Shown here: piece after piece, positions 3,002 to 19,683 of the stretch
How positions within the stretch are numbered: position 1 is the stretch's first letter
How the letters are laid out: each line of letters opens with the position of its first letter
Assembly (NCBI GenBank): GCA_039804105.1
Contig: JBDRZU010000001.1
Location: 1,218,602 to 1,282,601, forward strand
From: a candidate division WOR-3 bacterium
GTDB lineage: Bacteria > Hydrothermota > 32-111
Reading direction: 5' to 3'
DNA length: 64,000 nt
Position numbers and translations under genes: made by a program
The notes under the pieces: generated by a model
The model's input: only the letters and a program-made list of their open reading frames with translations
Database searches by the model: none
Told to the model about the DNA's origin: nothing

Positions 3002-4965
3002 ACGAAAAAATAGTTGTTGTAGGACAACCAAATAGTGGAAAATCTTCCCTGTTTAATGCTCTAACCGGTCTTGATCAAACGGTTGGTAATTGGCCTGGAG
3101 TTACTGTAGAAAAAAAGGAAGGATTTTTATTTATAGATGGAGAGAGATATGAAGTTGTTGATCTACCTGGGCTTTATGGTTTAACGCCCACAAGTTTAGA
3201 TGAAAAGATCTCTCTTGATTTTTTACTGGAATCTTCACCTTCACTCATTGTAAACATTCTTGATGGATCAAATCTTGAAAGATCTTTGTTTTTATCTTTA
3301 CAACTCTTTTTTCTCGACATCCCGATAATATTTTTTGTAAACAAGATAGATGTTGCAAAAAGTAAAGGTATAAAAATTGATGAAGAAAAGTTAAAAGAGA
3401 TATTTTCATGTGATATAGTTTTTGGTTCAGTTAAAAATGGTGAGGGGATAGATGAGTTAAAAAGGGTTATAAAAAATAACATTCATAAAAAGATATGTGA
3501 AACAAAATATTTTAAAGTCAGTGATAAAATATATTCGTATATAGAAAAAATATCGGAAATCCTTATAAAATATAAAGAATTTGAACATCATCCCAAATTC
3601 TTTTCATTAAAAGTTATTGAGGATGATAAAAATTTTTCTCCATTTATTTGTAAAATACTTGATTCTGAGGATCTTTCAAAAATAAAGAAAAATGTTGAGG
3701 AACTCTATAAAGATTTTAAAAAAAAGGATTTTTTGACTCTTGACTGGTTTTATTCTTTAAGTAGAGGTATTACAGGAGAGGTTACAAAAAGAGAATTTTA
3801 TGATAAAAAAAGTTTAACAGAAGAAATAGATAATACGCTTTTAAACAGATTTTTTTCTATTCCGATTTTTTTGATTATCTTTCTTTTTATATTCTTTTTA
3901 ACATTCTTTTTCGGGGATATCTTTTCAAAGATTATCTCTTTTCTTTTTGAGACAATTTCAACATATCTATCGAAAGTTTTAGAAAAAGGTTTTATTCTAT
4001 CGTTTTTAACTGAAGGCATAATCGGTGGTCTGGGTTCTGTGATTACCCTGATCCCGTATATTTTTTTTATGTATTTTTTTCTTGGTTTTCTTGAGGATAC
4101 CGGTTATCTTGCAAGAGTTGTTTTCATTATGGATAGATTTATGCATAAGATAGGACTTCATGGAAAATCTTTTATATCCCTGATACTTGGTTTTGGATGT
4201 TCTGTTCCCGCAGTTCTTTCAACAAGAGTTCTTGATACTCCAAAAGACAGAATAAAAACTATACTCATTATACCTTTTATACCCTGTTCATCAAGGTTAA
4301 CTGTTCTGATATTCCTTGGAGCCATACTTTTTGGGAAATTTGATTTTCTAATAATTTTTATTCTGTTTTTGCTTTCAATAGTTTTTGCAATTTTTTCAGG
4401 TTTTATTTTTGATAGGTTCCTTTTGAAAGAAACGAGTGAAGGTCTTATAATGGAACTACCTGATTACCACCTTCCAACAATAAAAAATCTTTTGTTGAAC
4501 TCTTATTTCAAGGTAAAAGATTTTATTAAGAGAGCTGGAACATTGATTTTTTTGATAACTCTTATTATTTTTCTTCTCTCATATTTCCCTCAAAATGTTG
4601 ATGGAGGTTTTATAAAAATTGGAGGAGAAAAGATAACATTTTTATTTAGACCTCTTGGTTTTGATATGGAAAGAACTGTATCCCTCCTGACCGGATTTTT
4701 TGCAAAGGAATCTGTTGTTTCAACTCTTGGTGTTCTGTATAAAGGAGAACAATTGGAAAACATAATAAGCGCAAGATGGGGAAAGATAGATGGGTTTGTT
4801 TTCCTTTTATTTTTGATGATATATCTTCCCTGTATTGCAACAGCGATAGTTATAAAACAGGAAACAGGATCATACCTTTACCTTTCAGGTATCATTGTTT
4901 ACTCAGTTTTTTTTGCTTATATAATATCTTTTATAGCAAGATATCTTTTGATCGCGATATTTTGA
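2998..4965 (+). CDS. feoB: FeoB ferrous iron transporter (G-protein plus permease)
   Basis: 655 aa. N-terminal GTPase P-loop GQPNSGKSSLFNALTG, followed by a multi-pass membrane domain. Confidence 0.95.
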   Translation: MNEKIVVVGQPNSGKSSLFNALTGLDQTVGNWPGVTVEKKEGFLFIDGERYEVVDLPGLYGLTPTSLDEKISLDFLLESSPSLIVNILDGSNLERSLFLSLQLFFLDIPIIFFVNKIDVAKSKGIKIDEEKLKEIFSCDIVFGSVKNGEGIDELKRVIKNNIHKKICETKYFKVSDKIYSYIEKISEILIKYKEFEHHPKFFSLKVIEDDKNFSPFICKILDSEDLSKIKKNVEELYKDFKKKDFLTLDWFYSLSRGITGEVTKREFYDKKSLTEEIDNTLLNRFFSIPIFLIIFLFIFFLTFFFGDIFSKIISFLFETISTYLSKVLEKGFILSFLTEGIIGGLGSVITLIPYIFFMYFFLGFLEDTGYLARVVFIMDRFMHKIGLHGKSFISLILGFGCSVPAVLSTRVLDTPKDRIKTILIIPFIPCSSRLTVLIFLGAILFGKFDFLIIFILFLLSIVFAIFSGFIFDRFLLKETSEGLIMELPDYHLPTIKNLLLNSYFKVKDFIKRAGTLIFLITLIIFLLSYFPQNVDGGFIKIGGEKITFLFRPLGFDMERTVSLLTGFFAKESVVSTLGVLYKGEQLENIISARWGKIDGFVFLLFLMIYLPCIATAIVIKQETGSYLYLSGIIVYSVFFAYIISFIARYLLIAIF

Positions 4966-4969
4966 ATTT

Positions 4970-5164
4970 ATGATAGAGGAAATAATAAATTTCATTTTGA
5001 ACAATAGAGTTGTAACAAAAAAGGAGATAACAAAAAAATTTGACATAGATGAACATTTTCTGGATTATATTATAAGTTATGCAAATAAAAGGGGTTACAA
5101 AATAAAAAAAGAAAAAAATAAGATTTTTAAATGTTCATCCTGTCCATATAAAAAATTTTTTTAG
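4970..5164 (+). CDS. FeoC-like small winged-helix protein
   Basis: 64-aa ORF immediately after feoB. Helix-rich N-terminus and C-terminal CSSCP cysteines, as in FeoC-like proteins. Confidence 0.4.
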   Translation: MIEEIINFILNNRVVTKKEITKKFDIDEHFLDYIISYANKRGYKIKKEKNKIFKCSSCPYKKFF

Positions 5165-5253
5165 GACTTGACAATCCCTTTTTTAAAATTAAATTTATCT
5201 TGTCATATTTAGAGATATTTTCATTTTTAAATAAAATAAAAGGAGGTATATTT

Positions 5254-5541
5254 ATGGCAAAGGAGAGTAAAATCCAACCTATCAACGGAAAAGTCCTTAT
5301 TAAAAGGATTGAAGAAAAAGAGGTAAAAAAAGGTTCCATTATAATCCCCGACACAGCGAAAGAGAAACCACAACAGGGAGAGGTTATTGCTGCTTCTAAA
5401 AAACTTGATGGAAAAGATCCTGATGTTAAACCAGGAGATATCGTTCTTTTTGGAAAATATGCTGGAACAGATATTGAGGTTGATGGTGTTGAGTATGTTA
5501 TAATGGACTCAACAGATATTCTTGCAATCATAAACAAATAA
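5254..5541 (+). CDS. groES: Co-chaperonin GroES
   Basis: The ORF-track frame begins at 5200. The likely start is the ATG at 5254, preceded by AGGAGG (5241-5246). Sequence MAKESKIQPINGKVLIKR...IIIPDTAKEKPQQGEV is typical of GroES. Confidence 0.95.
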   Translation: MAKESKIQPINGKVLIKRIEEKEVKKGSIIIPDTAKEKPQQGEVIAASKKLDGKDPDVKPGDIVLFGKYAGTDIEVDGVEYVIMDSTDILAIINK

Positions 5542-7188
<1,647 letters not shown>

Positions 7189-7199
7189 TATGAAAAATT

Positions 7200-7223
7200 G
7201 ATGGCGGGTTTTTACCCGCCATC
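7200..7223 (+). terminator. GC stem-loop after groEL (possible terminator)
   Basis: GATGGCGGG-ttttta-CCCGCCATC is a perfect 9-bp stem 11 nt after the groEL stop. No T-run follows on the plus strand, so confidence is moderate. Confidence 0.45.
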
Positions 7224-7240
7224 GAAAAATGGAGTGAAAA

Positions 7241-7513
7241 ATGCCAAACTACGATTATAAATGCAAAAAGTGTGGACTTGTGTTCAACGTTTTTCACAAA
7301 ATGTCAGACAGACCTTCTGTTAAATGTCCTGAATGTGATTCGGTTTCAGAGAAAATTTTAAGTTATAATTCGAACATTATTTTTAAAGGTTCAGGGTTTT
7401 ATGTGAACGATTACAAAAAGAATAACTCAACAGGGAGTGGACAGAAAGAAGATAAAGAAAAATCGAAATGTTCTGGTGGAAACTGTTCTGGTTCCTGTTC
7501 TTCATGTAGTTGA
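7241..7513 (+). CDS. FmdB-family zinc-ribbon protein
   Basis: N-terminus MPNYDYKCKKCG...KCPECDS (CxxC...CxxC) plus a Cys/Gly/Ser-rich tail, typical of the FmdB putative regulatory family. Confidence 0.75.
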   Translation: MPNYDYKCKKCGLVFNVFHKMSDRPSVKCPECDSVSEKILSYNSNIIFKGSGFYVNDYKKNNSTGSGQKEDKEKSKCSGGNCSGSCSSCS

Positions 7514-9295
7514 TTAAATTTTTTTCAAAACAACTATAATATTTTCAATATCTGAAGGATCTATAAGTCCATATAGATCTTTTATCTTTTCAACTTCATA
7601 CTTTGAAAGGATCTCTTTTGCCTCTTTTGAGATTATCGGGGATGTCAACAATCTGTTTTTATCTTTTATCAACTTTTCACCATTCTCAAGGATTATTTTT
7701 GTTATCCTTTTATATTTTTCTATATATCCTCTGTACTTATTTTCTGAATATATGAAAATTAATGCTCTTTCAGAAAATTCGGGTAATAATTTTTTAAAAT
7801 CTTCATAAGGGAATGATGGATCCTTTAAAAACTCAAACTTTTTCTTTAAAATAAAATTCTCTTTATCATGATAAAGAAAATTTTTTAACTCTTCTGCTTC
7901 TTCAAAAAGTTTTTTGTATAGTTCAGATCTTCTGCCGTTAAACTTTATCTTTTCGACTATATCTTTCAATCTTACAAATGAGTTATCCTGTCTTAAAAAC
8001 AATCTATTTTCAGATCTTGAAGTGAACAACCTGTATGGCTCCGTTAGATCCTTTTTGATTATATCGTCTATCAAAACTCCAATGTATGAGTTAAACCTAT
8101 CAAAAACTATATTATCTTTTCCAAGAAAAGATAATGCAGCGTTTAAACCCGCTACATAACCCTGTGCTGCTGCTTCTTCATATCCACTTGTTCCGTTAAT
8201 CTGTCCAGCAAAAAAAAGACCTTTTATACCTTTATGTTCAAGAGTTGGTTTTATCTGTTTACTTTTCAATGCATCATATTCAATAGCATATCCTGGTTGA
8301 GTAAAAACACTTTTTTCAAGACCTTTTATACTCTGGATGTATTCATATTGAACATCAACAGGTAATGAAGAAGATGCACCGTTTACATAAACCAGTTCAC
8401 TTTCAACACCCATTGGTTCGATGAAGATCGTGTGTGAACTTCTATCTGAAAATTTTACAACTTTATCTTCCAGAGATGGACAATATCTTGGCCCTTTCCC
8501 TTCTATATTTCCAGAATAGAGTGCGGAAAGATGAAGATTTTCTTTAATCGTTTTGTGTGTATTCTCATTTGTTCTTGTGATATAACAGGAAATTTTGTTT
8601 TCTACTTTTTGGGTTAATATTGAAAAAGATCCTGTATTATCCTCTCCCTTCTGTTCCTCCATTTTTGAAAAGTCAACACTGTTTTTCTTCAATCTTGGAC
8701 TTGTTCCCGTTTTTAACCTTATCAGTTTTATTCCTGTATTTTTTAAAGATTCTGATAATTTTAAAGAACTTTTTTCAGAAAATCTTCCTCCGTTTATCTG
8801 TTCTTTTCCAATAAAAATTTTTCCACCAAGGAATGTTCCCGAACATATAATAACATAACCAGTTTTTATCATACCAGTTTTTTCAAGTTTAATCCCGGCA
8901 ACTTTATTTTCTTGAACAACTATCTCAACAACTTCATCCTCAACGATTGAAAGGTTTTTAAAATTTTCTAATATTTTTAACGCGTTTTTAGGATAGGTAT
9001 CAGAATCTATCTGTGCTCTTAACGACCAAACAGCGGGTCCCTTACTTGAGTTTAAAAGTTTAAAATGTATTCCCGATAGATCTGCAAGAAGAGGCATAGA
9101 ACCTGAAAGCACATCGAGTTCAAATACAAGATGGCTTTTTCCGATTCCACCGATTGATGGATTGCATGAAGGGAACCCGATTTTGTTTCTATCGAAAGTA
9201 ACCAGAAGTGTTTTAAGATTGAAATTACTTATTATTGTGGCTGCCTCTATACCGGCATGTCCACCACCAACAACAACGATATCGTATTGGGACAT
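7514..9295 (-). CDS. mnmG: tRNA uridine 5-carboxymethylaminomethyl modification enzyme MnmG (GidA)
   Basis: 593 aa. N-terminal FAD-binding motif YDIVVVGGGHAGIEAA and GidA-like sequence throughout. Confidence 0.95.
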   Translation of the reverse strand: MSQYDIVVVGGGHAGIEAATIISNFNLKTLLVTFDRNKIGFPSCNPSIGGIGKSHLVFELDVLSGSMPLLADLSGIHFKLLNSSKGPAVWSLRAQIDSDTYPKNALKILENFKNLSIVEDEVVEIVVQENKVAGIKLEKTGMIKTGYVIICSGTFLGGKIFIGKEQINGGRFSEKSSLKLSESLKNTGIKLIRLKTGTSPRLKKNSVDFSKMEEQKGEDNTGSFSILTQKVENKISCYITRTNENTHKTIKENLHLSALYSGNIEGKGPRYCPSLEDKVVKFSDRSSHTIFIEPMGVESELVYVNGASSSLPVDVQYEYIQSIKGLEKSVFTQPGYAIEYDALKSKQIKPTLEHKGIKGLFFAGQINGTSGYEEAAAQGYVAGLNAALSFLGKDNIVFDRFNSYIGVLIDDIIKKDLTEPYRLFTSRSENRLFLRQDNSFVRLKDIVEKIKFNGRRSELYKKLFEEAEELKNFLYHDKENFILKKKFEFLKDPSFPYEDFKKLLPEFSERALIFIYSENKYRGYIEKYKRITKIILENGEKLIKDKNRLLTSPIISKEAKEILSKYEVEKIKDLYGLIDPSDIENIIVVLKKI

Positions 9296-9298
9296 TAT

Positions 9299-9763
9299 TT
9301 AAACTGTTTCTTCCTCTTTGAAAATTCGGATAATATCTTTTGCTGTTTCAGCTTTAAGAATTTTTTCTCTGAAACTTTCCTTTCTGCATATTCTCGAAAT
9401 TCTTGCAAGGAGTTGAATGTATTTATTTTTATTCTCTTCATTCGATGCTATAAGAAAGAATATGTGTACCGGCTTTGAATCGAAAGATTTAAAATCGATC
9501 CCATCCCTTGATATACCAAACGCAAGAGCGAGTCCTGCCACTGTTTCAGTTCTTGCATGTGGTATCGCAATGTTGTGTCCAATACCTGTTGTTTCGATCG
9601 CTTCCCTTTCTTTCAGTTTTTCAACAAGCAGATTTTTATCCTCAACAAGGTTGTTGTCAACAAGTATCTGTGCAAGTTCAACCAAAACATCGTCTTTGGT
9701 TTTTGATTTCAAATCTGGTTTTATAAGTTTTTCATTTAAAAGGTTATATAAAAATTCCATCAA
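9299..9763 (-). CDS. ptsN: PTS EIIA-type nitrogen-regulatory protein (PtsN-like)
   Basis: 154 aa with the EIIA(Ntr/Fru) signature GIGHNIAIPHAR around the phosphorylatable His. Confidence 0.8.
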   Translation of the reverse strand: MMEFLYNLLNEKLIKPDLKSKTKDDVLVELAQILVDNNLVEDKNLLVEKLKEREAIETTGIGHNIAIPHARTETVAGLALAFGISRDGIDFKSFDSKPVHIFFLIASNEENKNKYIQLLARISRICRKESFREKILKAETAKDIIRIFKEEETV

Positions 9764-10542
9764 TCTTCCTCTTCTTTTTTAAAAATATTTTTTATTCTAT
9801 CAAAAAAACTGAAATTATTCAAGACCCTATTTTCTAAAAATTCTCCTACAACCACTTTTGAAGGATTTTCATAAAAAATTTTAATTGCGACATTTTTTCC
9901 AAAATTTTTTTCAATTACATTATAAGAGGATGATAGTATCGGTGGTCTTAAATCGATTGAATGTGCATCTGAAGAAATAAAATGAACAAGATTTTTTTTA
10001 AAAACTTTTAAAAACAGAGGAAAAACACTCTTATTTAAAGCATCATCCGTGTTAAACTGGAACAGAACTCCAAGATCTAAAAGTTCTTCAAGAAAAGAGA
10101 TGTTTGAAAAAATTTTTCTGTTCCTGAAAGGATGCACGATTATTGGGGTTATATCCATAGAGGTAAAATATTTTATTATTTCTTTATAATATAAAGGTAT
10201 ATCGAGAAAAGGAAATTCAAGAAGTATATATTTTCCCATTTCGTTTATGGTTAAAATATTTATATTTTCTTCATACTTTTTGATCAGGTCCTTATCGATT
10301 CTAACCTCAAACCCAAGATGTAGTTTTATATTGATATTTTCTTTTTCTGCTTTTTCTTTTAAGGTCTGGAAATTTTGTTTTGCCTGATCTGGTTCGTATC
10401 TGAATTCTTCTGCGATGTGTGGAGTTAAAACAATCTCTTTTATCCCATCATTTTGGGCAATTTTCAACATTTCCAGAGATGTTTCAAGATCTTTTGGTCC
10501 ATCATCTATTCCATAAAGTAAATGGTTATGAATATCGATCAT
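9760..10542 (-). CDS. PHP-family protein-tyrosine phosphatase (CpsB/YwqE-like)
   Basis: 260 aa. N-terminus MIDIHNHLLYGIDDGPKDLETSLEMLKIA matches the CpsB/CapC metal-dependent phosphatase pattern. Confidence 0.75.
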   Translation of the reverse strand: MIDIHNHLLYGIDDGPKDLETSLEMLKIAQNDGIKEIVLTPHIAEEFRYEPDQAKQNFQTLKEKAEKENINIKLHLGFEVRIDKDLIKKYEENINILTINEMGKYILLEFPFLDIPLYYKEIIKYFTSMDITPIIVHPFRNRKIFSNISFLEELLDLGVLFQFNTDDALNKSVFPLFLKVFKKNLVHFISSDAHSIDLRPPILSSSYNVIEKNFGKNVAIKIFYENPSKVVVGEFLENRVLNNFSFFDRIKNIFKKEEED

Positions 10543-10551
10543 ATAAATTGT

Positions 10552-10579
10552 ATTTTAACAAAAACCGATTTATTTTCAA
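10552..10579 (-). promoter_or_regulatory. sigma70-type promoter of the cpsB-ptsN-mnmG operon (near-leaderless)
   Basis: Minus strand reads TTGAAA (plus 10574-10579), 16-nt spacer ending TGT, TAAAAT (plus 10552-10557). The ATG at 10542 lies only 9 nt after the -10 box and has no Shine-Dalgarno sequence. Confidence 0.4.
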
Positions 10580-10591
10580 TAAAAATTTTTC

Positions 10592-10620
10592 TTGACAAAA
10601 AATAAAAAATTTTCTAAAAT
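10592..10620 (+). promoter_or_regulatory. sigma70-type promoter upstream of the LVIVD/T9SS cargo gene
   Basis: TTGACA (10592-10597), 17-nt spacer, TAAAAT (10615-10620). It is followed by AAGGAGG (10631-10637) and the ATG at 10643. Confidence 0.6.
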
Positions 10621-10642
10621 TCAAATATAAAAGGAGGTAAAT

Positions 10643-10690
10643 ATGAAGAAGAGAAGAGAAGAGAAGAGAAGAGATCTTTCTCAGTTGTAA
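10643..10690 (+). other. 15-codon ORF from the strong start site, out of frame with the downstream 1085-aa ORF
   Basis: ATG 10643 translates to MKKRREEKRRDLSQL then stop (10688-10690). The large ORF frame is open from 10647 onward in a different frame. Confidence 0.8.
10647..10674. repeat. Pentanucleotide simple-sequence repeat (AAGAG/GAGAA), about 5.6 units
   Basis: Hand count gives five perfect AAGAG units at 10649-10673 plus partial flanks, starting at codon 2 of the ATG at 10643. Confidence 0.9.
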
Positions 10691-10706
10691 AAAGTTTTCC
10701 ATTTTA

Positions 10707-13700
10707 TTGATTTTTCTTTTTATGCTCCATTCGTTAAATAACATTATTGCAGAAGAAAAAGCATCTGCTGATTCACTTAATATTTTTACCATTTCAACTG
10801 TTCCAATGTCTTTTGCGGAAGATGTATTTTTGTTGGATAATATATGTTTTGTTACAGATCAAACTGAAGTTTATGCAATTGATGTTTTAAACAAAGAAAA
10901 TCCTTTAATTTTAAACAAATTTATTGACTCAATATATTCCTATGCGGTATGTGGTTATAAAGGGACTTATGGAGAGTATAATGTTTTTGTAGGTTCTGCC
11001 GGGGATACAAAAAGAGGGCTTTTTTACTTACAATTTTTGAACAATGAATTTAATCTTAGATTAGGAGAGAGTTATTCTGCTGTAAGAGATTTGTTTTATG
11101 ATTCTCCATATCTATATGTAGCAGGGGATGATGGTTTTAGAATTTATTATGCTGATAATGGATTTTTTAGTTTAATCTCCTGTATAAATATTACCAATTT
11201 AAAAGGTATACACATAAAAGATACATTAGCATTTATGGTTTCTGATGTAGATTCTTTATTAAGGATTTTTAATATAGCAGACAGACAAAAACCAAAACTC
11301 ATTTCTAAATTAATTGTAGGAAAAGCCCCATGGGAGGTAAATGTAACAGGTAACTATGCTTTTGTTTTAGTAGAAGGGCAATTTGTTACAATAGATATAT
11401 CAAATCTTGTTAATCCTATAATTTTAAACAGATTTTCATTTTCTCATGGTCAGTCAGAAGGTAGGATTTTTATTGAAAATAATTATGTTTATATTGGTCA
11501 TGTGAATTATGGTATTGAAATTCTTGATATTACAAACCCAGCCGCCCCGACAATGGTAGGGTATTATTATTATCCATTGAAGTTTGGAATGGGAGCTCTT
11601 GGTGTAGTTGTGAAAAACAAAACTATCTATACAGGTTTTACAACCAATGGATTTAAAATTTTTCAATTTTGTCCCAATGGATTTTTATTTGATATGCAAT
11701 ATTCCAGTTGTGTTAATTATGAAATTTTAGATACAATAGAGATTTTATTAACAAAAGAAAACACCTCTTTACCTTTTAGGAATGCTGAGGTCTATCTAAC
11801 TGATTTTAAGGGGAATAAAATTACCGAATCGAAATATCCTGATGAAAATGGAAAAATTTATTTTGAAATGATAAAAAGTGATACTTTTCCTCTTTATATT
11901 GTAGCCAAAAATCTTATTACGATAGGTCAGATTGAACAGAATAAAGTTTATACAAACTACAAACGTTTTGCATCAATAGAAACTATGAGAGAAATTCCTG
12001 TTTTGAAAGAAGTGGACTATGCAATAAAAGTTTTAGAATATATAACCTATCCTCCAGAAACCTTAAAAACCAATACAAAGCCATCAATAGGGGCAAATGT
12101 AAAATGTTATGATGAAAAGGGAAAAATTTATTTTAATACTTTAACGGATAATAATGGGGATGTATCTTATTTGTTTAATTTAAAATCAAATTTACGTCTA
12201 TTTGTGGAAATTGATAAAACAGGTTTTGTAAAAGAAATCAGAGAGATAATGCCCTATATATGGAGTAAGAGTGGATATGGATTGGGATTAAACAACCAGA
12301 GGAAGGTTGTAAGGGAATTGAACAGTGATAGAATGCATATAGTGTATACGGATGGAGATAGTATTGTGTATGGATACAGTGATAATTTTGGAGGGATCTG
12401 GAATCTTGAGAAGATAGGAAAGGGGAAAAATCCTTCCCTTGTGAAGACGACAGAGGGTTTAATAGCGATGTGGAATAATGGGACGAACATAGAGTATGCT
12501 GTGAAGAGTTCACCATGGGGAGGATACAGTCAATATCCAATGTTATGGAGTTCAGAGCCGGTGTTATTTAGTAGTTGGGAGAGTGACAGGAAGATAGGTG
12601 GATATATAGGATACAGATATGAAGGGTTAAATAGAGGGGACTTGATAGTGGGCGTATGGAAAGATGAGGACATAGGTAACATTGAATTTGATACAGTATT
12701 TACATATACAGGCACAACAGATAGAGTGGTTCCAATGTTTTCACCTGTTGTGGTTCCTTATTATGATGTTGCAACATTGTCGGAGTCATATATGGCTGCA
12801 TGCATAGATACAGGCTGGCATCTTGTTGGGAGTAGGTGGAATGGTTCAATTTCAAACTGGAGTTATTTTGATTTTATCAGTCCAGTAAATCAGAAGGCAC
12901 AGAATCCATCAGGAGATTATGATAACAGGGTCACGATATTTATATGGGAGGTTGATAATGGAGATGGGACGACGGAGATCTGGAATTCGAAGTATGGTAG
13001 AGTTAGTTTTGGAAGAGGGGTAAACAGATATCCAGTAAGCAGGAATGTGGTGCAGTCATCATATATAAAGGATTATGATAAGATAATAGGATACAGGGCG
13101 GGATATTCAGATACGTTGACACCTGAGAGTTATGTGATATATGATGGAGATGATTCGATATATAGTATGGATGCTGTGTATAAGAAAGGGTTAATAGAGA
13201 CAAAGTTTTATTATTGCTGGTTTGAGGGTAGTAATGGGGAATACAGATTTAAATCGAAGGTGAGGAGTTACAGTCAAAATGTGTTGCCATATTCGAGTGG
13301 AGAACCGACAGATACGATAGATGGTGTGATAATAAGTCCATTGAGGGAGTATGTTAAGGGTAATTTTAAGATAGAGAGGATGGTGTATGAAGTGGGTGGA
13401 ATGAATAGAGAGATGAACTATCTGGTGAAGGTAAAGATAGAAGATAAAAATCCACATATACCAGAAGTTGTTCAGATAGATGGAGAGGTGTATGGAGTAA
13501 TTTATGGTGGTCCTGGAGAGAAGGTATTGGAGATAGTTGTTCCAAAAGAGAAATATGAAGGTGACAGAAAAATAGAGATCAGTATAGACAGGAAGAAGGG
13601 GGATAAAAACAGGGTAGCAAAGATAGAGGTATATGAATATGAAGAGGAAGTGGGAGTTATATCGATGGTGAAAGGAGGGATAAAAGCGGAAGGGAAAGAG

Positions 13701-13964
13701 ACAGTGGAAGAGAAATATGAAAGTATGATAAACAATATCAGGTATAATGAGGGTAATGGTCGAATAGAATATATGATGAATGGAGCGGGAGATGTGAAGA
13801 TAAGAGTTATGGATATAACAGGGCGAATAGTGGAAAAGAAGGAGATGGGGTATCAAGTTAAGGGAGAATATGGAATGGATATAAAGATAAAGAAAGGGAT
13901 ATATTTTGTTGTTATAGATGTTGGAGGTATAGAATATACAAAGAAGATAGTGAGAGTGAGATAG
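10707..13964 (+). CDS. Large secreted LVIVD-repeat protein with T9SS C-terminal sorting domain; 5' end apparently frame-disrupted by the pentanucleotide repeat
   Basis: 1085-aa ORF (TTG start in the ORF track). N-terminal half has LVIVD-like blades (YAFVLVEGQFVTIDISNLVNPII, YVYIGHVNYGIEILDITNPAAPTMVGYY). C-terminus GIYFVVIDVGGIEYTKKIVRVR is T9SS CTD-like. The proper signal peptide appears only if this ORF is joined to the ATG at 10643. Confidence 0.7.
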   Translation: MIFLFMLHSLNNIIAEEKASADSLNIFTISTVPMSFAEDVFLLDNICFVTDQTEVYAIDVLNKENPLILNKFIDSIYSYAVCGYKGTYGEYNVFVGSAGDTKRGLFYLQFLNNEFNLRLGESYSAVRDLFYDSPYLYVAGDDGFRIYYADNGFFSLISCINITNLKGIHIKDTLAFMVSDVDSLLRIFNIADRQKPKLISKLIVGKAPWEVNVTGNYAFVLVEGQFVTIDISNLVNPIILNRFSFSHGQSEGRIFIENNYVYIGHVNYGIEILDITNPAAPTMVGYYYYPLKFGMGALGVVVKNKTIYTGFTTNGFKIFQFCPNGFLFDMQYSSCVNYEILDTIEILLTKENTSLPFRNAEVYLTDFKGNKITESKYPDENGKIYFEMIKSDTFPLYIVAKNLITIGQIEQNKVYTNYKRFASIETMREIPVLKEVDYAIKVLEYITYPPETLKTNTKPSIGANVKCYDEKGKIYFNTLTDNNGDVSYLFNLKSNLRLFVEIDKTGFVKEIREIMPYIWSKSGYGLGLNNQRKVVRELNSDRMHIVYTDGDSIVYGYSDNFGGIWNLEKIGKGKNPSLVKTTEGLIAMWNNGTNIEYAVKSSPWGGYSQYPMLWSSEPVLFSSWESDRKIGGYIGYRYEGLNRGDLIVGVWKDEDIGNIEFDTVFTYTGTTDRVVPMFSPVVVPYYDVATLSESYMAACIDTGWHLVGSRWNGSISNWSYFDFISPVNQKAQNPSGDYDNRVTIFIWEVDNGDGTTEIWNSKYGRVSFGRGVNRYPVSRNVVQSSYIKDYDKIIGYRAGYSDTLTPESYVIYDGDDSIYSMDAVYKKGLIETKFYYCWFEGSNGEYRFKSKVRSYSQNVLPYSSGEPTDTIDGVIISPLREYVKGNFKIERMVYEVGGMNREMNYLVKVKIEDKNPHIPEVVQIDGEVYGVIYGGPGEKVLEIVVPKEKYEGDRKIEISIDRKKGDKNRVAKIEVYEYEEEVGVISMVKGGIKAEGKETVEEKYESMINNIRYNEGNGRIEYMMNGAGDVKIRVMDITGRIVEKKEMGYQVKGEYGMDIKIKKGIYFVVIDVGGIEYTKKIVRVR

Positions 13965-13985
13965 GGGTATTATACCCCTGTCTTT
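13963..13985 (+). terminator. Short GC hairpin plus T-stretch between two cargo genes (possible attenuator/terminator)
   Basis: AGGGGTA / TACCCCT stem overlapping the stop codon, followed by GTCTTTT. Confidence 0.35.
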
Positions 13986-14000
13986 TATAAGGTGGGAGAT

Positions 14001-16250
14001 ATGAAGAGTGTAATTGTTCTGGTGATAATGTTATTGATGATGATTGTTGTGTATGGTGATTTTGAGATGTTGACAACATTTCCACATGGCGCAATAATGC
14101 AACAACAAGGTTGGTTTTCGATAGGTAAATTTGATTTTAACAATAATGGAATAGAGGAGTTAATATTACATACGATACATTATAAATTGGGAGATGAATT
14201 TTACCCCTATCATCCTTTTTTTGAATACAGGAGAGAAGGGGGATACCATTTTGAAGAGGTCTACAGGATTGTTCGTCATGGAGTTCTACCCATTGGTATA
14301 GGGGATCTTGATAATGATGGTTTATATGAACTGATAGAGATGACAAGTATTTCAATATATATAATGGAACAGAAGAGCAGGGAAGAGTTTCCGGATACAA
14401 CGAAACAGGTCTTATGGTTGGCGGATACGACTTATTCATTTGGTCCATTGTATATAACGAACGAGTTGAAAGGGGATTCAATAGACAGATTGGTGTGGGT
14501 TGGTTTACCGGGTATAACCACAAGGACACGGAGTTATGGATGGGGGTATTTAGAGTATATTGGTGAAAACACACTTGAGTTGACACACACATTTGCTGAT
14601 ACAGTGCAGTTAAAAAATCCTATCAGTGTAGGAAATATAAATAATAATGGACTTATTGATATAATAATTGCAACCAACTTTTATGCTAGTAGTAAAATCT
14701 TATGGTATGAAGCAACCGATAAGACATGTGATTCATTTAATTTTAAAGATAGTATAAGGTTTAGTGTTTGGAATGATAATGATCCGCTGTTAAAAAAAAT
14801 GATTTTTACAAACGATATAAACAGGAATGGATATAATGAAATCTTGTTAGCAAATTCTTGGTATATGGATGGATTAACATTGTATCAATACTACAGGTAT
14901 TATCTTATTGAATACAATCCAGAGACGGATAAATTGGAGATAAAATGGACAACAGAATGTAGTTCACCGCCGAATCCAAATATAACGATATGGGCTAATG
15001 CGGATTTATTAAGTGCAGGTGTTGGATGTGATTGTGGAGATGTTGATGGAGATGGGCTGGAGGATATTTTGATAAATGGGGGAAGACATGTTGAAGTATG
15101 GAAGAATTATGGTGGTGATATATATGGGAAGATATATGAATGGACAGATAGCACATACCAGACATTGAGCAGCACTGTGAGGGCTTATGATTTTAATGGT
15201 AATGGGATAAAGGAGGTTATATTTTTGGGGCATGATTACTGGTGTCCACCGCCCTATCCGACAGAATATACACCGGATGAATATCAAAGGACATATGTAT
15301 TTGAATACAGGAGATTGCAGGTAGATGTTGACAACAATGCGTTACTTAGGGATGTAGACACACTGATATTGGGTAGCAGTGTAAATGGAGATACATTGTA
15401 TAAGGAGATAAAGTTTTGCAATGTTGGGTATGATACGATAAAACTGGATTCAATCGTGTTTGAGAGTGAGTGTTATGGTGTGAAAGGGAGTTTTCCTGAA
15501 CTGATATGGGTAGGAGAGAGCGCGGGGAAAGAGATCTGGTTTAAGGGGGATAGTGCTGGGAGATATCTTGATAGTGCATGGATATATGGGGATAGTAATA
15601 GGTATAAGTTAATGTTAAAAGGGGCATACAGATACAAAGTGGAGATAGATTCGATAGTTGCGAGTTATGTGAGTATATATGACAGGAATGTGGTAAGTAT
15701 ATATTTTAATGAGAAGACGACGATGCCAGAGATAACGAAGGATAATATAGATGAAGTGTTGAGGTTGAGCAGTGGACATAGCTGGAAAGATAAATTTGGG
15801 GAAATATATAATACGAAGTGGATAAGATATAATGGAAGAGATAAACTGGTGGTGCAATTGAGTGCTGGAGGTAATAGACCAACAGTGAGTATAGGTGATA
15901 GTGTGTATATTGATAATGGAGAGATAAGAGATGAATGGTTAAAAGAGAGAGTGGTGACATCTGGAGTGATAAGAGGGGAATTATATTTTAGTGGAATAGA
16001 TGAAGAAGAGATAAATAGAGATGGGTTGAATTTGACATACAAAGGAGGTGTTTTGTATTATAGTGTTGAAGAGGGAAAAATTTTTGAGATAGAGGTGTAT
16101 GATGTGATGGGTAGGGTGATAGCAAGAAGAGATGAGGGTAAAGGCAGAAAAGGCATAATAGATATGAATAGATATGGATGTGGAGTATATTTTGTGAGAA
16201 TGAGAAAGGGAGAAGATGTGATAACTAAAAAGATTGTGAAAATAAAATGA
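14001..16250 (+). CDS. Secreted FG-GAP/VCBS-like repeat protein with T9SS C-terminal sorting domain
   Basis: The ORF-track frame is 13992-16250. The likely start is the ATG at 14001 (MKSVIVLVIMLL signal). Repeated Ca-binding-like loops: DLDNDGLYE, NINNNGLIDIIIA, DINRNGYNEILLA, DVDGDGLEDILI, DFNGNGIKEVIF. C-terminus GVYFVRMRKGEDVITKKIVKIK. Confidence 0.7.
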   Translation: MKSVIVLVIMLLMMIVVYGDFEMLTTFPHGAIMQQQGWFSIGKFDFNNNGIEELILHTIHYKLGDEFYPYHPFFEYRREGGYHFEEVYRIVRHGVLPIGIGDLDNDGLYELIEMTSISIYIMEQKSREEFPDTTKQVLWLADTTYSFGPLYITNELKGDSIDRLVWVGLPGITTRTRSYGWGYLEYIGENTLELTHTFADTVQLKNPISVGNINNNGLIDIIIATNFYASSKILWYEATDKTCDSFNFKDSIRFSVWNDNDPLLKKMIFTNDINRNGYNEILLANSWYMDGLTLYQYYRYYLIEYNPETDKLEIKWTTECSSPPNPNITIWANADLLSAGVGCDCGDVDGDGLEDILINGGRHVEVWKNYGGDIYGKIYEWTDSTYQTLSSTVRAYDFNGNGIKEVIFLGHDYWCPPPYPTEYTPDEYQRTYVFEYRRLQVDVDNNALLRDVDTLILGSSVNGDTLYKEIKFCNVGYDTIKLDSIVFESECYGVKGSFPELIWVGESAGKEIWFKGDSAGRYLDSAWIYGDSNRYKLMLKGAYRYKVEIDSIVASYVSIYDRNVVSIYFNEKTTMPEITKDNIDEVLRLSSGHSWKDKFGEIYNTKWIRYNGRDKLVVQLSAGGNRPTVSIGDSVYIDNGEIRDEWLKERVVTSGVIRGELYFSGIDEEEINRDGLNLTYKGGVLYYSVEEGKIFEIEVYDVMGRVIARRDEGKGRKGIIDMNRYGCGVYFVRMRKGEDVITKKIVKIK

Positions 16251-16279
16251 AAAAGTTTTAAATAAAAAAAGGAGAGGGT

Positions 16280-18268
16280 ATGAAAAAAGTTTTGTTGTTT
16301 GCTTCAATACTGGGTTACTTTATGTATCTTTTTCCAGTGTTTGATTGTATTGAGATCAAAGAAAACAATACAGGTTATTATATTTCCAATCGTGGAAACA
16401 ATTTCCTTAACATTTATCCTATTAACAGAACTTTTTACTGGCCAGTCAATTATACTTCTGAAACTTATATGTTCGGTTCTGGGTTTGCTTTTGGAACAAT
16501 ATGTTTGAATGATACTCTCTATTCAACTGGAGATGATTTATCTCATCCCGGTATATCAGATTTTGTTCCAGGTGATGGATCTGATAACCCGGCACCTTAT
16601 GACGATCCATTTTTCAGAATATATAAAAGTTATGATATACATTATCCTGTTGATTCAACACTTTCTCTTGTTGATGTTTATTGTGTTTATAATGATCTGG
16701 ATAGTTCTTATAGATGGATTTCTTATTCATCACCTGTAAGAATAGTTGTTGAGCAACAATTGTATAATTTCAGAGCACCAAAAGTTGAAAATATGATTTT
16801 TATGAACTTTAAAATAAAAAATAAAAATACCGGTAATTTTGAAAAATCTTATTTCAGTTTTTGGGCTGATCCTGATATAGGAAGTGATTATTACAACGAA
16901 CTTTTAGGATTTGTTGAAGATGAGGATATAGTTTATCAGTTTCAACTTGAAGGTGAATCGGGATGGCATGATACTCCAGGTATCATTTCCTTTAAACTTT
17001 TGCAGGGTCCTATAGCAACAGAAACAGTTGATGTTTATCACGATGGAAGTAAAATCATTTTACCCTTTCAACCAATCTGTTTAACACAGTTCAGAAATGT
17101 TAATTATACAACCTATCCAGCAGATATCGAAAAGAGATATCTCTTATCAGCAGGTTATAAATTCTGGGAATTTGACTCATTGAATCCTGAGAATTCCTAT
17201 GAGCCATTTCCTCTCTGGACACAATCTCTTTCAGGTTACCCTGGCAAAAATCTGGACTCCACGAGTGCTGGAAATAAATCGTTAATTTTTTCTTCAGGTC
17301 CTTTCGATCTGAATGCGAACGATAGCATGAGTGTTTCGATGGTTGTTTATCTAACAAAATCTCCGGATAGCATTATTTCCCTTGGAAATTTAGCAAAATG
17401 GTGGTGGAAAAACAGAAATACAAAATATTTACAGTTTCTAACACCTTTGAATTTACAAAAAATTTCATCTCAAACTATCTTTTCATGGGTTGGGAATATA
17501 ACTTTTCCAAAATATTCTTTACATTTTTTAAACCTTTCAACAGGAGTATGGTATGATGTTAAAGATTTAACCACAAACTCCTATTTGTTTAACCCAGCAA
17601 CTTTTAACGATGCTGTTTATCTATGTGGTGTTGGAGGATACACTGATACAAGTTTTATTGGAGATAAAAATCATCTTTACATTCTTGTAGACAATGCTGG
17701 TAAAAATGGTCCTCCTTATATTTATTCTTATGAAAAAAGTTTAACTGATGATAGTATAATCACATTAAAATGGAAAACACTTGATCCTGATGACAATCTA
17801 TCGAACAGTTATATCTACTTTGTTTCATCAACGAACGATTCTGTTTACAAAAAGACATTTGAAAAGACGGATACGATCTTTTCTTTAAATCTTGTTCAAT
17901 CTTTACCAGAGGATAACTACAAAATAGTTTTGATTTCAGTTGATGATTCTCTTCTTTCCGATACATCAATTGTTTACCATGAATTCTTCTTGTCAGGAAT
18001 CGATTATGATAGAAAAATTGAAAACAAAAATATTTTCACATTCAAAGTTTTGCAGAAAAAAGATTTGATTGAACTTATCGTTGAAGGTAAAAAAGATGAT
18101 GTTGAAATTTCGTTGTATAACATTGAAGGAAGAAAGATGGAAAACATCTACTCCGGCTCTGTTGATGGAACATTCAGAATCACAAGAAAACTGAATTTGC
18201 CCTGCGGAATATATTTTATAAAAGAAAAAACAACACGCAAGATACAGCATATCTACCTGATAAAATAA
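16280..18268 (+). CDS. Secreted protein of unknown function with T9SS C-terminal sorting domain
   Basis: 662 aa. RBS GGAGAGGG, signal-like MKKVLLFASILGYFMYLF, C-terminus GIYFIKEKTTRKIQHIYLIK. Confidence 0.6.
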   Translation: MKKVLLFASILGYFMYLFPVFDCIEIKENNTGYYISNRGNNFLNIYPINRTFYWPVNYTSETYMFGSGFAFGTICLNDTLYSTGDDLSHPGISDFVPGDGSDNPAPYDDPFFRIYKSYDIHYPVDSTLSLVDVYCVYNDLDSSYRWISYSSPVRIVVEQQLYNFRAPKVENMIFMNFKIKNKNTGNFEKSYFSFWADPDIGSDYYNELLGFVEDEDIVYQFQLEGESGWHDTPGIISFKLLQGPIATETVDVYHDGSKIILPFQPICLTQFRNVNYTTYPADIEKRYLLSAGYKFWEFDSLNPENSYEPFPLWTQSLSGYPGKNLDSTSAGNKSLIFSSGPFDLNANDSMSVSMVVYLTKSPDSIISLGNLAKWWWKNRNTKYLQFLTPLNLQKISSQTIFSWVGNITFPKYSLHFLNLSTGVWYDVKDLTTNSYLFNPATFNDAVYLCGVGGYTDTSFIGDKNHLYILVDNAGKNGPPYIYSYEKSLTDDSIITLKWKTLDPDDNLSNSYIYFVSSTNDSVYKKTFEKTDTIFSLNLVQSLPEDNYKIVLISVDDSLLSDTSIVYHEFFLSGIDYDRKIENKNIFTFKVLQKKDLIELIVEGKKDDVEISLYNIEGRKMENIYSGSVDGTFRITRKLNLPCGIYFIKEKTTRKIQHIYLIK

Positions 18269-18273
18269 AGATC

Positions 18274-18297
18274 GGGGACGGTGCTTGACTTTTTGAC
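18274..18297 (-). repeat. Conserved intergenic motif, copy a (reverse orientation)
   Basis: Plus strand reads GGGGACGGTGCTTGACTTTTTGAC, 5 nt after the stop of the 16280-18268 gene and upstream of the rRNA promoters. Confidence 0.95.
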
Positions 18298-18328
18298 ATT
18301 TTAAGAATAAAAAAAATTTTATTTGCTC

Positions 18329-18356
18329 TTGACAGAAAAAATTTTTTGATTATAAT
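18329..18356 (+). promoter_or_regulatory. rRNA promoter P1 (consensus sigma70)
   Basis: TTGACA (18329-18334), 16-nt spacer, TATAAT (18351-18356), preceded by an A/T-rich UP-like tract. Confidence 0.7.
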
Positions 18357-18413
18357 GAAAAACACTGAAGGAACAACGCCCTTCAGGAAATTTCAAAAAA
18401 ATAAAAATTGCTC

Positions 18414-18441
18414 TTGACAAATTTAAAAAGTTTGATATAAT
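18414..18441 (+). promoter_or_regulatory. rRNA promoter P2 (consensus sigma70, extended -10)
   Basis: TTGACA (18414-18419), 16-nt spacer ending TGA, TATAAT (18436-18441). Shares the GCTCTTGACA context with P1. Confidence 0.7.
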
Positions 18442-19025
18442 TTTTATCCTTTTAAAATTTGATTGATCTTTGACATTTTGAATTTTGTGGAAAGGCATCT
18501 TATGGATTAAGATACTAAGAGTATGTGGGGAATGCCTTGGCACAGATAGGCGATGAAGGACGTAGCAGGCTGCGATAAGCCTCGGGGAGCCGCCAAGCGG
18601 GCTTAGATCCGAGGATCTCCGAATGGGGAAACCTTATACGGTAAACCCGTATAGTCCATGAATGAATACATAGTTCATGGTCGCCAACTCAGGGAAGTGA
18701 AACATCTCAGTACCTGAAGGAAAAGAAAACAAAAGTGATTCCCTAAGTAGTGGTGAGCGAAAGGGGAAGAGCCCAAACCGAGATGTATGTAAGGCTGCAA
18801 CCGTTGTACATCCGGTGTTGTGGGACCTGATAGACCGAGTGCAGTGAGGTCAAAAGGTTACAAATTGTTTGATTAGCAGAACTTGTCTGGAATGGCAGGC
18901 CATAGAAGGTGAAAGCCCGGTATGCAAAAATCAAACAACCTTTTTCAGGTATCCCAAGTACCACGGGACACGTGAAATCTTGTGGGAATCTGGGAGGACC
19001 ACCTCCTAAGGCTAAATACTCATCT

Positions 19026-19073
<48 letters not shown>

Positions 19074-19683
19074 TGGCGGGGAGTGAAATAGAATCTGAAA
19101 CCACATACTTACAATCAGTTGGAGGGCTACATTTCGGGCAACCGAAATATGCCTGACAGCGTACCTTTTGCATAATGGACCGGCGAGTTACTCTATGTTG
19201 CGAGGTTAAGTGAAAGTAATCACGGAACCGTAGCGAAAGCGAGTCCGAATAGGGCGTTTAGTAGCATGGAGTAGACCCGAAGCTGAACGAGCTATCCATG
19301 GCCAGAGTGAAGTCGGGGTAACACCCGATGGAGGCTCGAACTAGTAACCCTTTAAAAGGTTTTGGATGAGCTGTGGATGGGAGTGAAAGGCTTAACAAGT
19401 TCAGTGATAGCTGGTTCTCCCCGAAATAGCTTTAGGGCTAGCCTCGGATGGTCAGTATTGGGGGTAGAGCTCTGAAAAGGTTAGGGTGTCACAAGCATAC
19501 CGACCCTTATCAAACTACGAATCCTAATACTCAAAATCCGGGAGTCAGGCAGTGGGGGCTAAGCTTCATTGCCGAGAGGGAAACAACCCAGACCGTCAGT
19601 TAAGGTCCCAAAATATAGGCTAAGTGGTAAAGGATGTGAAATTACCCAGACAGCCAGGATGTTGGCTTAGAAGCAGCCATACA

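Follow-up and report, generated by a model that had tools for sequence, protein, structure and literature searches.

An AAGAG repeat as a candidate translational on/off switch for a T9SS cargo gene in an uncultivated WOR-3 bacterium

How is a surface protein of about 1100 residues made when the only start codon with a Shine-Dalgarno sequence before it reads into a stop after 15 codons? This question is raised by a locus in a 64 kb stretch of DNA (hereafter the window) of a candidate division WOR-3 bacterium, a lineage that is uncultivated and known only from MAGs. The initial annotation of this DNA had described a strong start site that a pentanucleotide repeat separates from the reading frame of a large T9SS cargo gene, and had proposed slipped-strand on/off switching, with a sequencing or assembly error as the alternative. 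Here, we compare the locus with that of a second MAG of the same species (L001; GCA_039804125.1) and with the ortholog locus of another species (L002), and weigh the switch against four other readings. In our judgement the AAGAG locus is probably a slipped-strand contingency locus that acts on translation and of which the present alleles are OFF.

The start region and its reading frames

The features of the locus are collected in Table 1. The promoter hexamers and their spacing, the AAGGAGG ribosome-binding site, the ATG at 10643, the run of about 5.6 AAGAG copies, the premature end of the ATG frame and the large frame that opens at 10647 with no good start had all been placed correctly by the initial annotation. 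Promoter-like matches in this AT-rich region (37) are not enriched over shuffled sequences (35.8), so the promoter call rests not on the scan but on conservation, both hexamers and the 17-nt spacing being the same in L002. The Shine-Dalgarno sequence is, with 8 nt, the longest anti-SD match among the gene starts of the window, where matches of at least 4 nt are found for 22 of 33 genes. The divergent phosphatase gene on the other side of the control region is syntenic in all assemblies. An Rfam search of the locus gave no match to an RNA family, which leaves a riboswitch or leader RNA reading without support.

Table 1. Features at the AAGAG locus of the WOR-3 window (window coordinates)
Feature	Position	Strand	Basis or remark
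CpsB/CapC-like PHP phosphatase gene, divergent; bounds the 100-nt control region	9760..10542	-	Pfam PF19567, 178 bits
Sigma-70-type promoter, TTGACA (10592-10597), 17-nt spacer, TAAAAT (10615-10620)	10592..10620	+	11/12 match
Shine-Dalgarno AAGGAGGT, 4 nt 5' of ATG	10631..10638	+	anti-SD match; AAGGAGG kept in L002
ATG, predicted true translation start of the preprotein	10643..10645	+	sole start with a Shine-Dalgarno before it
Abortive 15-codon frame from ATG, MKKRREEKRRDLSQL, stop TAA at 10688-10690	10643..10690	+	present OFF register
Perfect (AAGAG)n simple sequence repeat, 28 nt, 5.6 copies, 100% matches	10647..10674	+	period-5 run
Large ORF, LVIVD-repeat protein with T9SS type A C-terminal sorting domain	10647..13964	+	1105 codons open; annotated as 1080 aa from ATG 10722
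Rest of predicted signal peptide in the large-ORF frame: IFLSCKK (n-region), FSILLIFLFML (h-region), HSLNNIIA (c-region), cleavage before EE	10674..10751	+	hydrophobicity and cleavage-motif inspection
FG-GAP protein with T9SS C-terminal domain (CTD)	14001-16250	+	36-nt gap after cargo gene; CTD above cut-off
Unknown protein with signal peptide	16280-18268	+	29-nt gap after FG-GAP gene

Read from the start codon, the sequence is ATGAAG followed by five full AAGAG units at 10649-10673, and the tract is far beyond chance. No other perfect pentanucleotide repeat with at least three copies occurs within the 64 kb window; in 100 order-1 Markov simulations, the longest run of period 5 reached 19 nt (mean 13.9), and a 15-mer scan gave 4 matches against 0.40 expected. 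The published cut-off for candidate phase-variable simple sequence repeats, used in PhasomeIt, is at least five units for pentanucleotides (PMC6321876); the window has 5.6 copies, L001 8.6 and L002 5.8, all of them perfect.

In every frame the repeat translates as (KRREE)n, and in none does it contain a stop codon. In the large-ORF frame, a TGA (10644-10646) overlaps the ATG, after which the frame is open to 13964, with TTG 10707 and ATG 10722 as the only candidate starts. Frame analysis in both species places the tract between the start codon and the ORF body, where changes in unit number toggle the frame and every third count gives a full-length ORF. For the window, simulated tracts of 3, 6, 9 or 12 units give ORFs of 1103-1118 aa and all other counts from 2 to 12 give 10-30 aa; the earlier prediction that one unit gained or two units lost would fuse the frames thus holds for the simulated 6- and 3-unit tracts.

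The cargo protein is 100% identical to a database entry (P0001) named T9SS type A sorting domain-containing protein of a candidate division WOR-3 bacterium at NCBI. Chance would leave 1105 codons open with a probability of about 4e-43 at the local base composition (31% GC; stop probability 0.085 per codon). Searches with Pfam and NCBIfam found on it only LVIVD (48 bits) and the T9SS CTD, and no homology to the Opa beta-barrel; the CTD scored 29.0 bits with TIGR04183 (cut-off 23; residues 1041-1102, about nt 13767-13952) and 21.8 bits with PF18962, which is under the gathering score of 27. A PDB sequence search returned no relative, and the protein has only two homologs. The order of the cargo gene and the two genes downstream is syntenic in L001 and L002, and a search of the + strand between them gave no terminator-like site; the two genes may be co-transcribed with the cargo gene and be hit by polarity in an OFF state. 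Three other ORFs of the window bear the CTD (14001-16250 and 49495-53271 above the cut-off, 63-2012 under the Pfam gathering score), which suggests that T9SS is in use. Among the annotated ORFs of the 64 kb window, no T9SS machinery genes (PorV/SprA/PorU and others) were identified.

Predicted signal peptide and proposed switch

Before it reaches the T9SS, a cargo protein has to be taken across the inner membrane by Sec. The other T9SS-CTD genes of the window begin with a Shine-Dalgarno and an ATG that lead directly into MK(K/R/S) and a hydrophobic signal peptide, so the cargo of this organism can be taken to use the usual Sec-then-T9SS route. For the product that fuses the ATG at 10643 to the large frame, the maximum Kyte-Doolittle window of 11 residues is 3.06, compared with 2.3-3.5 for the signal peptides of neighbouring T9SS cargo proteins. 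The products of the annotated starts reach 1.6-1.9 and have no signal peptide by hydrophobicity. The equivalent stretch of L002 reads LFPQCK-LLFLFFLFLIS-QMFNSFVFA, with cleavage predicted before EV, and in both species the h-region lies 3' of the tract and 5' of the annotated ATG, in the large-ORF frame, which offers no start codon there. Judged from these sequences, the predicted signal peptide appears reachable in both species only through the ATG that stands 5' of the repeat. A lipoprotein reading of the conserved cysteine (IFLSC in the window, LFPQC in L002) was rejected; no hydrophobic stretch stands before the cysteine, and the h-region comes after it.

Under the proposed model, the T9SS-secreted LVIVD-repeat surface protein (about 1100 aa) would start at ATG 10643 and be read through the (AAGAG)n, which would add a charged (KRREE)n extension to the n-region of the signal peptide. 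Slipped-strand mispairing at replication would add or remove units and, because the unit is 5 nt long, each gain or loss would shift the frame and bring the ATG into or out of the frame of the preprotein. In the window species, tracts of 3, 6, 9 or 12 units would be ON and those of other counts OFF; in the species of L002, tracts of 4 or 7 units would be ON. In the OFF state, ribosomes would stop after 15 codons (window) or 20 codons (L001) and no exportable protein would result. One unit gained by slippage would yield a preprotein of which the h-region is normal and the cleavage motif ends in Ala (IIA before EE). We infer slippage as the mutational mechanism, as well as its reversibility and a switching rate; phage, grazers or surface attachment may be the selective agent, and expression of the two downstream genes would be lowered by polarity in the OFF state.

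Tract length and conservation

The initial annotation had pointed to repeat number as the property to compare between samples. Over 15,243 nt, the window and L001 differ by one mismatch, a synonymous SNP at window position 9350, and one gap of 15 nt. This sole indel corresponds to three AAGAG units (5 in the window, 8 in L001), and the proteins of each MAG have accessions of their own. The comparison within the species comprises these two complete alleles. The 8-unit allele is also OFF, with a short frame of 20 codons, and as the two alleles lie three units apart the short ATG frame is unchanged between them; a difference that keeps this frame is equally expected if the short frame itself mattered. 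A third dataset that bears on length is the Logan assembly (k=31) of a further sample, SRR27730023: one of its contigs breaks off within the tract, by which point it has at least 30 nt of perfect repeat, more than in the window allele.

In L002, the ortholog has 58% amino acid identity, synteny is kept and the upstream genes share 82% nucleotide identity. L002 retains TTGACA-17-TAAAAT, AAGGAGG, the ATG and, after it, 29 nt of perfect AAGAG repeat (5 units). Directly 3' of the tract, the sequence diverges from that of the window, and the tail of the short frame after the repeat reads GYFLNVNFYFYSFYF before its stop. The locus is out of frame here as well, in a different register: fusion of the frames needs a +1 shift in the window species and a -1 shift in L002. 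With a dN/dS of 0.26 over 1085 codons (dS about 1.3), the large ORF is, on this codon comparison, under purifying selection.

The error that had been put forward alongside the switch, a tract that is in frame in the organism and of which the length was mis-assembled, could draw on the break of the k=31 Logan contig within the tract and on small-k assembly steps, which can collapse repeats. However, tracts of 28-43 nt fit within an ordinary read, the two assemblies differ by exactly 15 nt, or three whole units, against one SNP in 15.2 kb elsewhere, and the independent assembly of another species contains a perfect tract that is out of frame too and, at 29 nt, is shorter than k=31, so that it should assemble unambiguously. 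A discrepancy of precisely three units, and a tract that another species has as well, make an artefact very unlikely.

None of the three complete alleles (5 and 8 units in the window species, 5 units in L002) is in frame and no ON allele is on record, as would also be seen if an unstable repeat had broken the frame of a gene that is now becoming a pseudogene, with no adaptive switching. A search of a collection of 5.8 billion proteins found no longer in-frame protein; with the fused N-terminus as query it returned only a 90-aa partial copy (P0025) from a third WOR-3 MAG, with no ON allele and no other proteins led by (KRREE)n. Since all three alleles would be OFF by chance with P of about 0.3 and the sample is small, this absence is weak evidence. 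Decay is difficult to reconcile with an ORF that is intact over about 1100 codons in two species in DNA of 31% GC, with the low dN/dS at this dS, and with a perfect tract, promoter, Shine-Dalgarno and ATG kept across species despite diverged flanks. The frameshift is moreover not an inherited lesion, since the register of the break differs between the two species. We regard decay of the gene as unlikely.

It might also be asked whether the short ATG frame is a regulatory uORF that encodes a leader peptide, the large protein being produced constitutively from TTG 10707 or ATG 10722 through re-initiation and the tract only tuning the leader. In the window, 17 nt separate the leader stop from TTG 10707 and 32 nt separate it from ATG 10722, the leader stop of L002 lies 9 nt before its annotated ATG, ATG 10722 is the start picked by annotation pipelines, and the two alleles of the window species share the short frame. 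On the other side, neither start is preceded by a Shine-Dalgarno, and the products of both would lack the n-region and the full h-region (1.6-1.9 versus 3.06). The register differs in L002, and the short peptide that follows the repeat is not conserved there, which counts against a functional leader, while the overlapping large-ORF frame is conserved in character. A constitutive protein behind a leader therefore seems to us very improbable. Relatives that share one out-of-frame arrangement and are translated from the TTG or ATG would have spoken against a switch; L002 has a different register, and nothing supported initiation at these codons.

The OFF alleles might, finally, give the full-length protein by programmed recoding, either by ribosomal frameshifting or because transcription slips on the purine repeat. 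A repetitive purine tract behind a strong Shine-Dalgarno could in principle favour slippage, and OFF is the commoner state among similar loci with at least five copies (11 OFF versus 2 ON among the matches listed). This ratio is nevertheless not significantly different from a random 2:1 (binomial P about 0.14), the tract contains neither an X XXY YYZ heptamer nor a long homopolymer, and one programmed event could not serve both species because they need opposite shifts. Recoding appears extremely improbable. The reading as a slipped-strand switch, in turn, finds support in the 5 and 8 units within one species, in the retention of the tract in L002 and in a signal peptide that comes into frame only via the repeat.

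Similar repeats in other bacteria and their significance

The mechanism of slipped-strand switching is textbook knowledge, of which the WOR-3 locus is a new instance. The closest likeness is to the opa genes of Neisseria, in which a pentanucleotide repeat is likewise found within the 5' region that encodes the signal peptide of a surface protein, and the opa unit, CTCTT, is the reverse complement of AAGAG, so that both loci carry the same repeat duplex. In opa, the purine strand is not the coding one: the coding strand is the pyrimidine strand and specifies hydrophobic residues, which sit in the h-region, whereas in WOR-3 the purine strand is coding and specifies charged (KRREE)n. The copy number of the (CTCTT)n sets the ATG of opa in or out of the frame of the mature protein and changes by slipped-strand events (PMC13183285). 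The proteins themselves are not homologous, Opa being a small outer-membrane beta-barrel and the WOR-3 protein an LVIVD/T9SS cargo of 1100 aa. Unlike the multigene opa family of a host-restricted pathogen, a single locus was seen in 64 kb of an uncultivated environmental WOR-3 bacterium.

Intragenic 5-nt units, present in about 3-12 copies, of strain-variable length and acting by frameshift ON/OFF, are likewise found in hsdM of Haemophilus influenzae, where (GACGA)4 switches at a high rate (PMC2651432). Low-copy (CACAG)n units in a type III restriction-modification gene of Mannheimia (Pasteurella) haemolytica are similar in their frameshift ON/OFF and strain-variable length (reference 49 in PMC6321876). 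In contrast to the WOR-3 locus, hsdM and the (CACAG)n locus switch restriction-modification enzymes, and their tracts lie outside a signal peptide.

Scans for a Shine-Dalgarno and ATG followed by at least three AAGAG units gave 55 loci in GTDB representative genomes and at least 120 in JGI metagenomes; the WOR-3 locus was not found among the GTDB and JGI matches listed (blastn, tblastn). The layout of Shine-Dalgarno, ATG, (AAGAG)n and a signal peptide or lipobox recurs in Brachyspira, Myxococcota and Acidobacteriota (Terriglobia), in ON and OFF states. These loci are alike in having a Shine-Dalgarno, an ATG, 0-8 nt, 5 to 13 copies of AAGAG and an h-region. Most have a lipobox cysteine. The loci encode lipoproteins, not T9SS cargo, and their products are unrelated, mostly short orphans with no Pfam family. 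A literature search found no description of AAGAG phase-variable lipoproteins in these groups, and no direct precedent for T9SS in WOR-3 or for T9SS cargo with switching by simple sequence repeats.

More speculatively, (AAGAG)n could be a switch cassette for exported proteins that was recruited convergently across phyla and that, in WOR-3, makes a surface module of three genes phase-variable, a possibility that we hold to be rather doubtful. Such a cassette would work because the frames read contain no stop, because a charged extension of the n-region would be tolerated and then cleaved off, and because a polypurine mirror repeat is especially prone to slippage. If this were true, the OFF state would also silence by polarity the two downstream WOR-3 genes, one with a T9SS sorting domain and one with a signal peptide only, and a switch of three genes in an uncultivated lineage with small genomes would speak for strong selection by phages or partners.

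To our knowledge, slipped-strand phase variation has been documented almost entirely in host-adapted pathogens. The logic of such a switch now has comparative support in an uncultivated candidate phylum, where it would act on T9SS cargo. MAG annotations of genes of this kind would be wrong, with the start codon misplaced and the signal peptide lost. That the AAGAG module is met before the signal peptides of several phyla suggests a simple sequence signature with which to search for contingency loci beyond the pathogens, and the surface heterogeneity of environmental bacterial populations would be readable from metagenomic reads at such tracts.

Start signals and reading frames of the target gene

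All the start signals that the initial annotation had described upstream of the LVIVD-repeat T9SS cargo gene were found: promoter, Shine-Dalgarno sequence (SD), ATG and AAGAG tract (see table). The promoter scan alone says little, with 37 matches in this 31.5% GC DNA against 35.8 expected. The SD is the longest match among the window genes (n = 33), 22 of which have a match of at least 4 nt, and no SD precedes TTG 10707 or ATG 10722. With the start codon included, the tract reads ATG AAG (AAGAG)x5 ATC; it encodes KRREE in all three frames and stop codons in none. No other perfect pentanucleotide repeat in the 64 kb reaches three copies, and the tract far exceeds the longest period-5 runs of 100 composition-matched simulations (up to 19 nt, mean 13.9). 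As had been claimed, the frame of the upstream ATG is short, giving MKKRREEKRRDLSQL, and the large frame is open directly after the TGA that overlaps this ATG. The large frame has two possible starts, TTG 10707 and ATG 10722, and no others. When unit changes were simulated, the window species had an ORF of 1103-1118 aa at 3, 6, 9 or 12 units, and L002, the homologous locus of another species (Logan SRR28822788), had one of 1116-1126 aa at 4, 7 or 10 units, while the remaining counts among 2-12 gave only 10-35 aa. Adding one unit or removing two (6 or 3 units) thus joins the frames in silico, as proposed.

Coordinates of features in the window
Feature	Position (strand)	Details
Sigma-70-type promoter	TTGACA 10592-10597, TAAAAT 10615-10620	17-nt spacer; 11/12 match (promoter scan)
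SD AAGGAGGT	10631-10638	8 nt
ATG upstream of tract	10643	
TGA closing large-ORF frame	10644-10646	
AAGAG repeat	10647-10674	Tandem Repeats Finder: period 5, 5.6 copies, 100% matches
Large ORF	10647-13964	
TAA ending frame of ATG 10643	10688-10690	
23S rRNA gene	18505-22194	3690 nt vs 2925-nt model
LAGLIDADG homing endonuclease ORF	20613-21185	PF00961, 73 bits
5S rRNA	22244-22360	
Second large T9SS cargo	49495-53271	1258 aa, 13 LVIVD repeats
Tandem 126-nt copies	49813-51367	12 copies, 68-84% identity
Defence-type island (putative)	48316-48873, 53645-60575	
26-nt motif	18275-18300 (-), 24173-24198 (+), 47968-47993 (+), 48965-48990 (+), 53377-53402 (+), 53575-53600 (+), 63109-63134 (-)	0-1 mismatch

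In other window genes bearing a C-terminal T9SS sorting domain (CTD), an SD-ATG directly opens a classic signal peptide (MKSVIVLVIMLL..., MKRVVLFFVLIF...). In the target gene a putative peptide of this kind exists only in the large-ORF frame, 5' of the annotated start (...CKK-FSILLIFLFML-HSLNNIIA/EE, predicted cleavage site marked by a slash). The fused product would carry the canonical signal peptide proposed earlier, with an Ala-ending cleavage motif and a maximum 11-residue hydrophobicity of 3.06 in the h-region, against 1.6-1.9 from the annotated starts. T9SS cargo has to pass the inner membrane via Sec first, and therefore the annotated products would not be secretable. Automatic annotation puts the start 3' of the repeat in every assembly (window 10722, MEO0234584.1 / MEO0297700.1; L002 6001), which strips the signal peptide from the gene.

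The cargo protein and its surroundings

The large ORF is 100% identical to the NCBI entry 'MAG: T9SS type A sorting domain-containing protein [candidate division WOR-3 bacterium]' (1080 aa, annotated from ATG 10722), which occurs under two accessions, on one contig of 266 kb and one of 1.39 Mb. The protein contains LVIVD repeats (Pfam, 48 bits) and, at its C-terminus, a T9SS type A sorting domain (TIGR04183, 29 bits, cut-off 23), the Pfam version of which stays under the gathering score; a PDB sequence search returned no relative. The gene is the first of three on the same strand, with gaps of 36 and 29 nt; the second gene also encodes a CTD. Common housekeeping genes surround the group (feoB, groES/EL, mnmG, a cpsB-like phosphatase, 23S/5S rRNA).

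In the second large T9SS cargo gene, the LVIVD repeats are encoded by the tandem 126-nt copies, a possible substrate for repeat-number variation through recombination. The 26-nt motif AA[A/T]GTCAAAAAGTCAAGCACCGTCCC occurs seven times against 0 expected from shuffles, is mostly intergenic (one copy, 24173-24198, overlaps the end of ORF 24185-24769), contains TTGACT twice in its reverse complement, and may represent a dispersed element of a regulatory, promoter-like or REP-like kind. Copies of it flank what looks like a defence-type island, encoding an AbiEii/DUF6036-like nucleotidyltransferase, a PLD-nuclease/SNF2-helicase fusion (1118 aa) and an Eco57I/MmeI-like methylase with a TaqI_C specificity domain (1159 aa). 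The length of the 23S gene and the LAGLIDADG ORF inside it indicate an intron. The 5S gene follows, and the 16S gene appears unlinked, since none lies upstream of the 23S gene in the window.

Allelic variation and the proposed switch

The homologous locus of the same-species MAG GCA_039804125.1 (L001) aligns with window positions 4737-19964 over 15,243 nt with one synonymous mismatch (9350) and one gap, a 15-nt difference that corresponds to three more AAGAG units in L001. Repeat number, which had been suggested for comparison among samples, thus differs (8.6 vs 5.6 copies); both alleles have the same OFF frame. A Logan contig of SRR27730023 with an identical neighbouring gene ends inside the tract after at least 30 nt of perfect repeat, exceeding the 28 nt of the window, and its break at just this point would fit a tract of at least 36 nt causing a k-mer cycle at the Logan setting of k=31. 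Two observations make the sequencing or assembly error considered earlier unlikely: the alleles differ by exactly three units within otherwise identical DNA, and a short tract is also present in the independent assembly of the second species.

In that species, L002 has the gene order of the window, with upstream genes at 82% nucleotide identity and an ortholog of the target protein at 58% amino acid identity. Both loci have TTGACA-17-TAAAAT, AAGGAGG and the ATG, and the AAGAG run of L002 is perfect (29 nt), while the DNA directly 3' of it has diverged. The ATG frame of L002 is also abortive (25 codons), in the other register than in the window, and 5' of the annotated ATG its large-ORF frame again has an h-region, with a cleavage motif that ends in Ala (LFPQCK-LLFLFFLFLIS-QMFNSFVFA/EV). 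Purifying selection acts on the large ORF (dN/dS 0.26, dN 0.33, dS ~1.3, 1085 aligned codons), and frames of ~1100 codons are intact in both species (chance of so long an open frame ~4e-43). This selection, the differing registers and the conserved tract and start signals contradict a decaying pseudogene. A regulatory leader peptide with re-initiation downstream fails, as the downstream starts lack an SD, their product lacks a signal peptide, and the tail of the short peptide after the repeat is not conserved. Programmed recoding, by which OFF alleles would yield the protein, would need opposite shift directions in the window species and L002. The switch reading is weakest in that none of the three alleles seen (window, L001, L002) is ON, the chance of which is ~0.3, and in that the window and L001 share one OFF frame.

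The tract-length difference, the cross-species tract and the frame logic support the earlier reading of a slipped-strand on/off switch of a surface protein, and we consider this candidate quite likely to be a genuine simple sequence repeat (SSR) phase-variation locus. In such a translational contingency switch, slippage on (AAGAG)n would add or remove units, and at each third value the strongly initiated ATG would be linked with the signal peptide and mature protein. Because the tract encodes KRREE in all three frames without a stop codon, it would in frame merely extend the charged n-region, which export removes. The window and L001 would represent the OFF state, which probably affects the two downstream genes by polarity through 3.3 kb of untranslated mRNA. 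We infer slippage, reversibility and rate by analogy with similar tracts; the PhasomeIt cut-off for pentanucleotide SSRs is at least 5 units (PMC6321876), and H. influenzae hsdM, with (GACGA)4, has a high switching rate (PMC2651432).

Among known systems, Neisseria opa comes closest: the copy number of its unit CTCTT, which is AAGAG read on the opposite strand, sets whether the ATG is in frame with the mature protein (PMC13183285). The WOR-3 locus would act like opa, yet its protein lies outside the Opa family in domain and PDB searches. It differs from opa in having the purine strand as its coding strand, which places the repeat in the n-region, in encoding a T9SS substrate, and in belonging to an uncultivated environmental lineage. 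In one literature collection, by which novelty is not proven, no papers were found that join T9SS cargo to SSR switching or treat AAGAG tracts in this role.

Recurrence of the module in other phyla

Scans for SD-ATG-(AAGAG)3 or more yielded 55 loci in GTDB representative genomes and at least 120 in JGI metagenomes. Among the loci listed, 5'-terminal loci with at least 5 copies, L001 and L002 included, comprise 11 OFF and 2 ON, not significantly different from a random 2:1 (binomial P ~0.14). In most of these an h-region opens the long frame directly after the tract, often followed by a lipobox Cys. Pfam assigned no family to the proteins of L007, L012, L016, L027, L041, L043, L046 and L049, with one weak sub-threshold match (L012).

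Brachyspira catarrhinii Z12 (L012, L027, L049) and a Brachyspira sp. MAG (L006, L035, L043) have several such loci per genome, with 6-13 copies; L006 and L035 run past contig ends. In at least the other four the tract precedes paralogous small lipoproteins (...LLSLILFFSISC/KSNE; consensus ...LSFKLFIxLLSxILxFSISC/KSNE) in mixed ON and OFF registers. From sequence these look like an SSR-switched lipoprotein family, of which no description was found in the literature searched. In Myxococcota (L007 and L046, one MAG; ...VAGLVGC/DG), Myxococcales (L016) and Terriglobia (L041), free-living soil or aquatic phyla, 6-9 copies separate the start codon from a lipobox-type signal peptide.

Judged by its architecture, the WOR-3 locus is one instance of a recurrent module. 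The switch mechanism is textbook; the lineage and secretion system are new, as is the recurrence across phyla. Misplaced starts are a systematic mis-annotation to be expected for OFF-phase contingency genes in MAGs, and the distribution of the module suggests that SSR contingency loci outside pathogens are more common than usually assumed.
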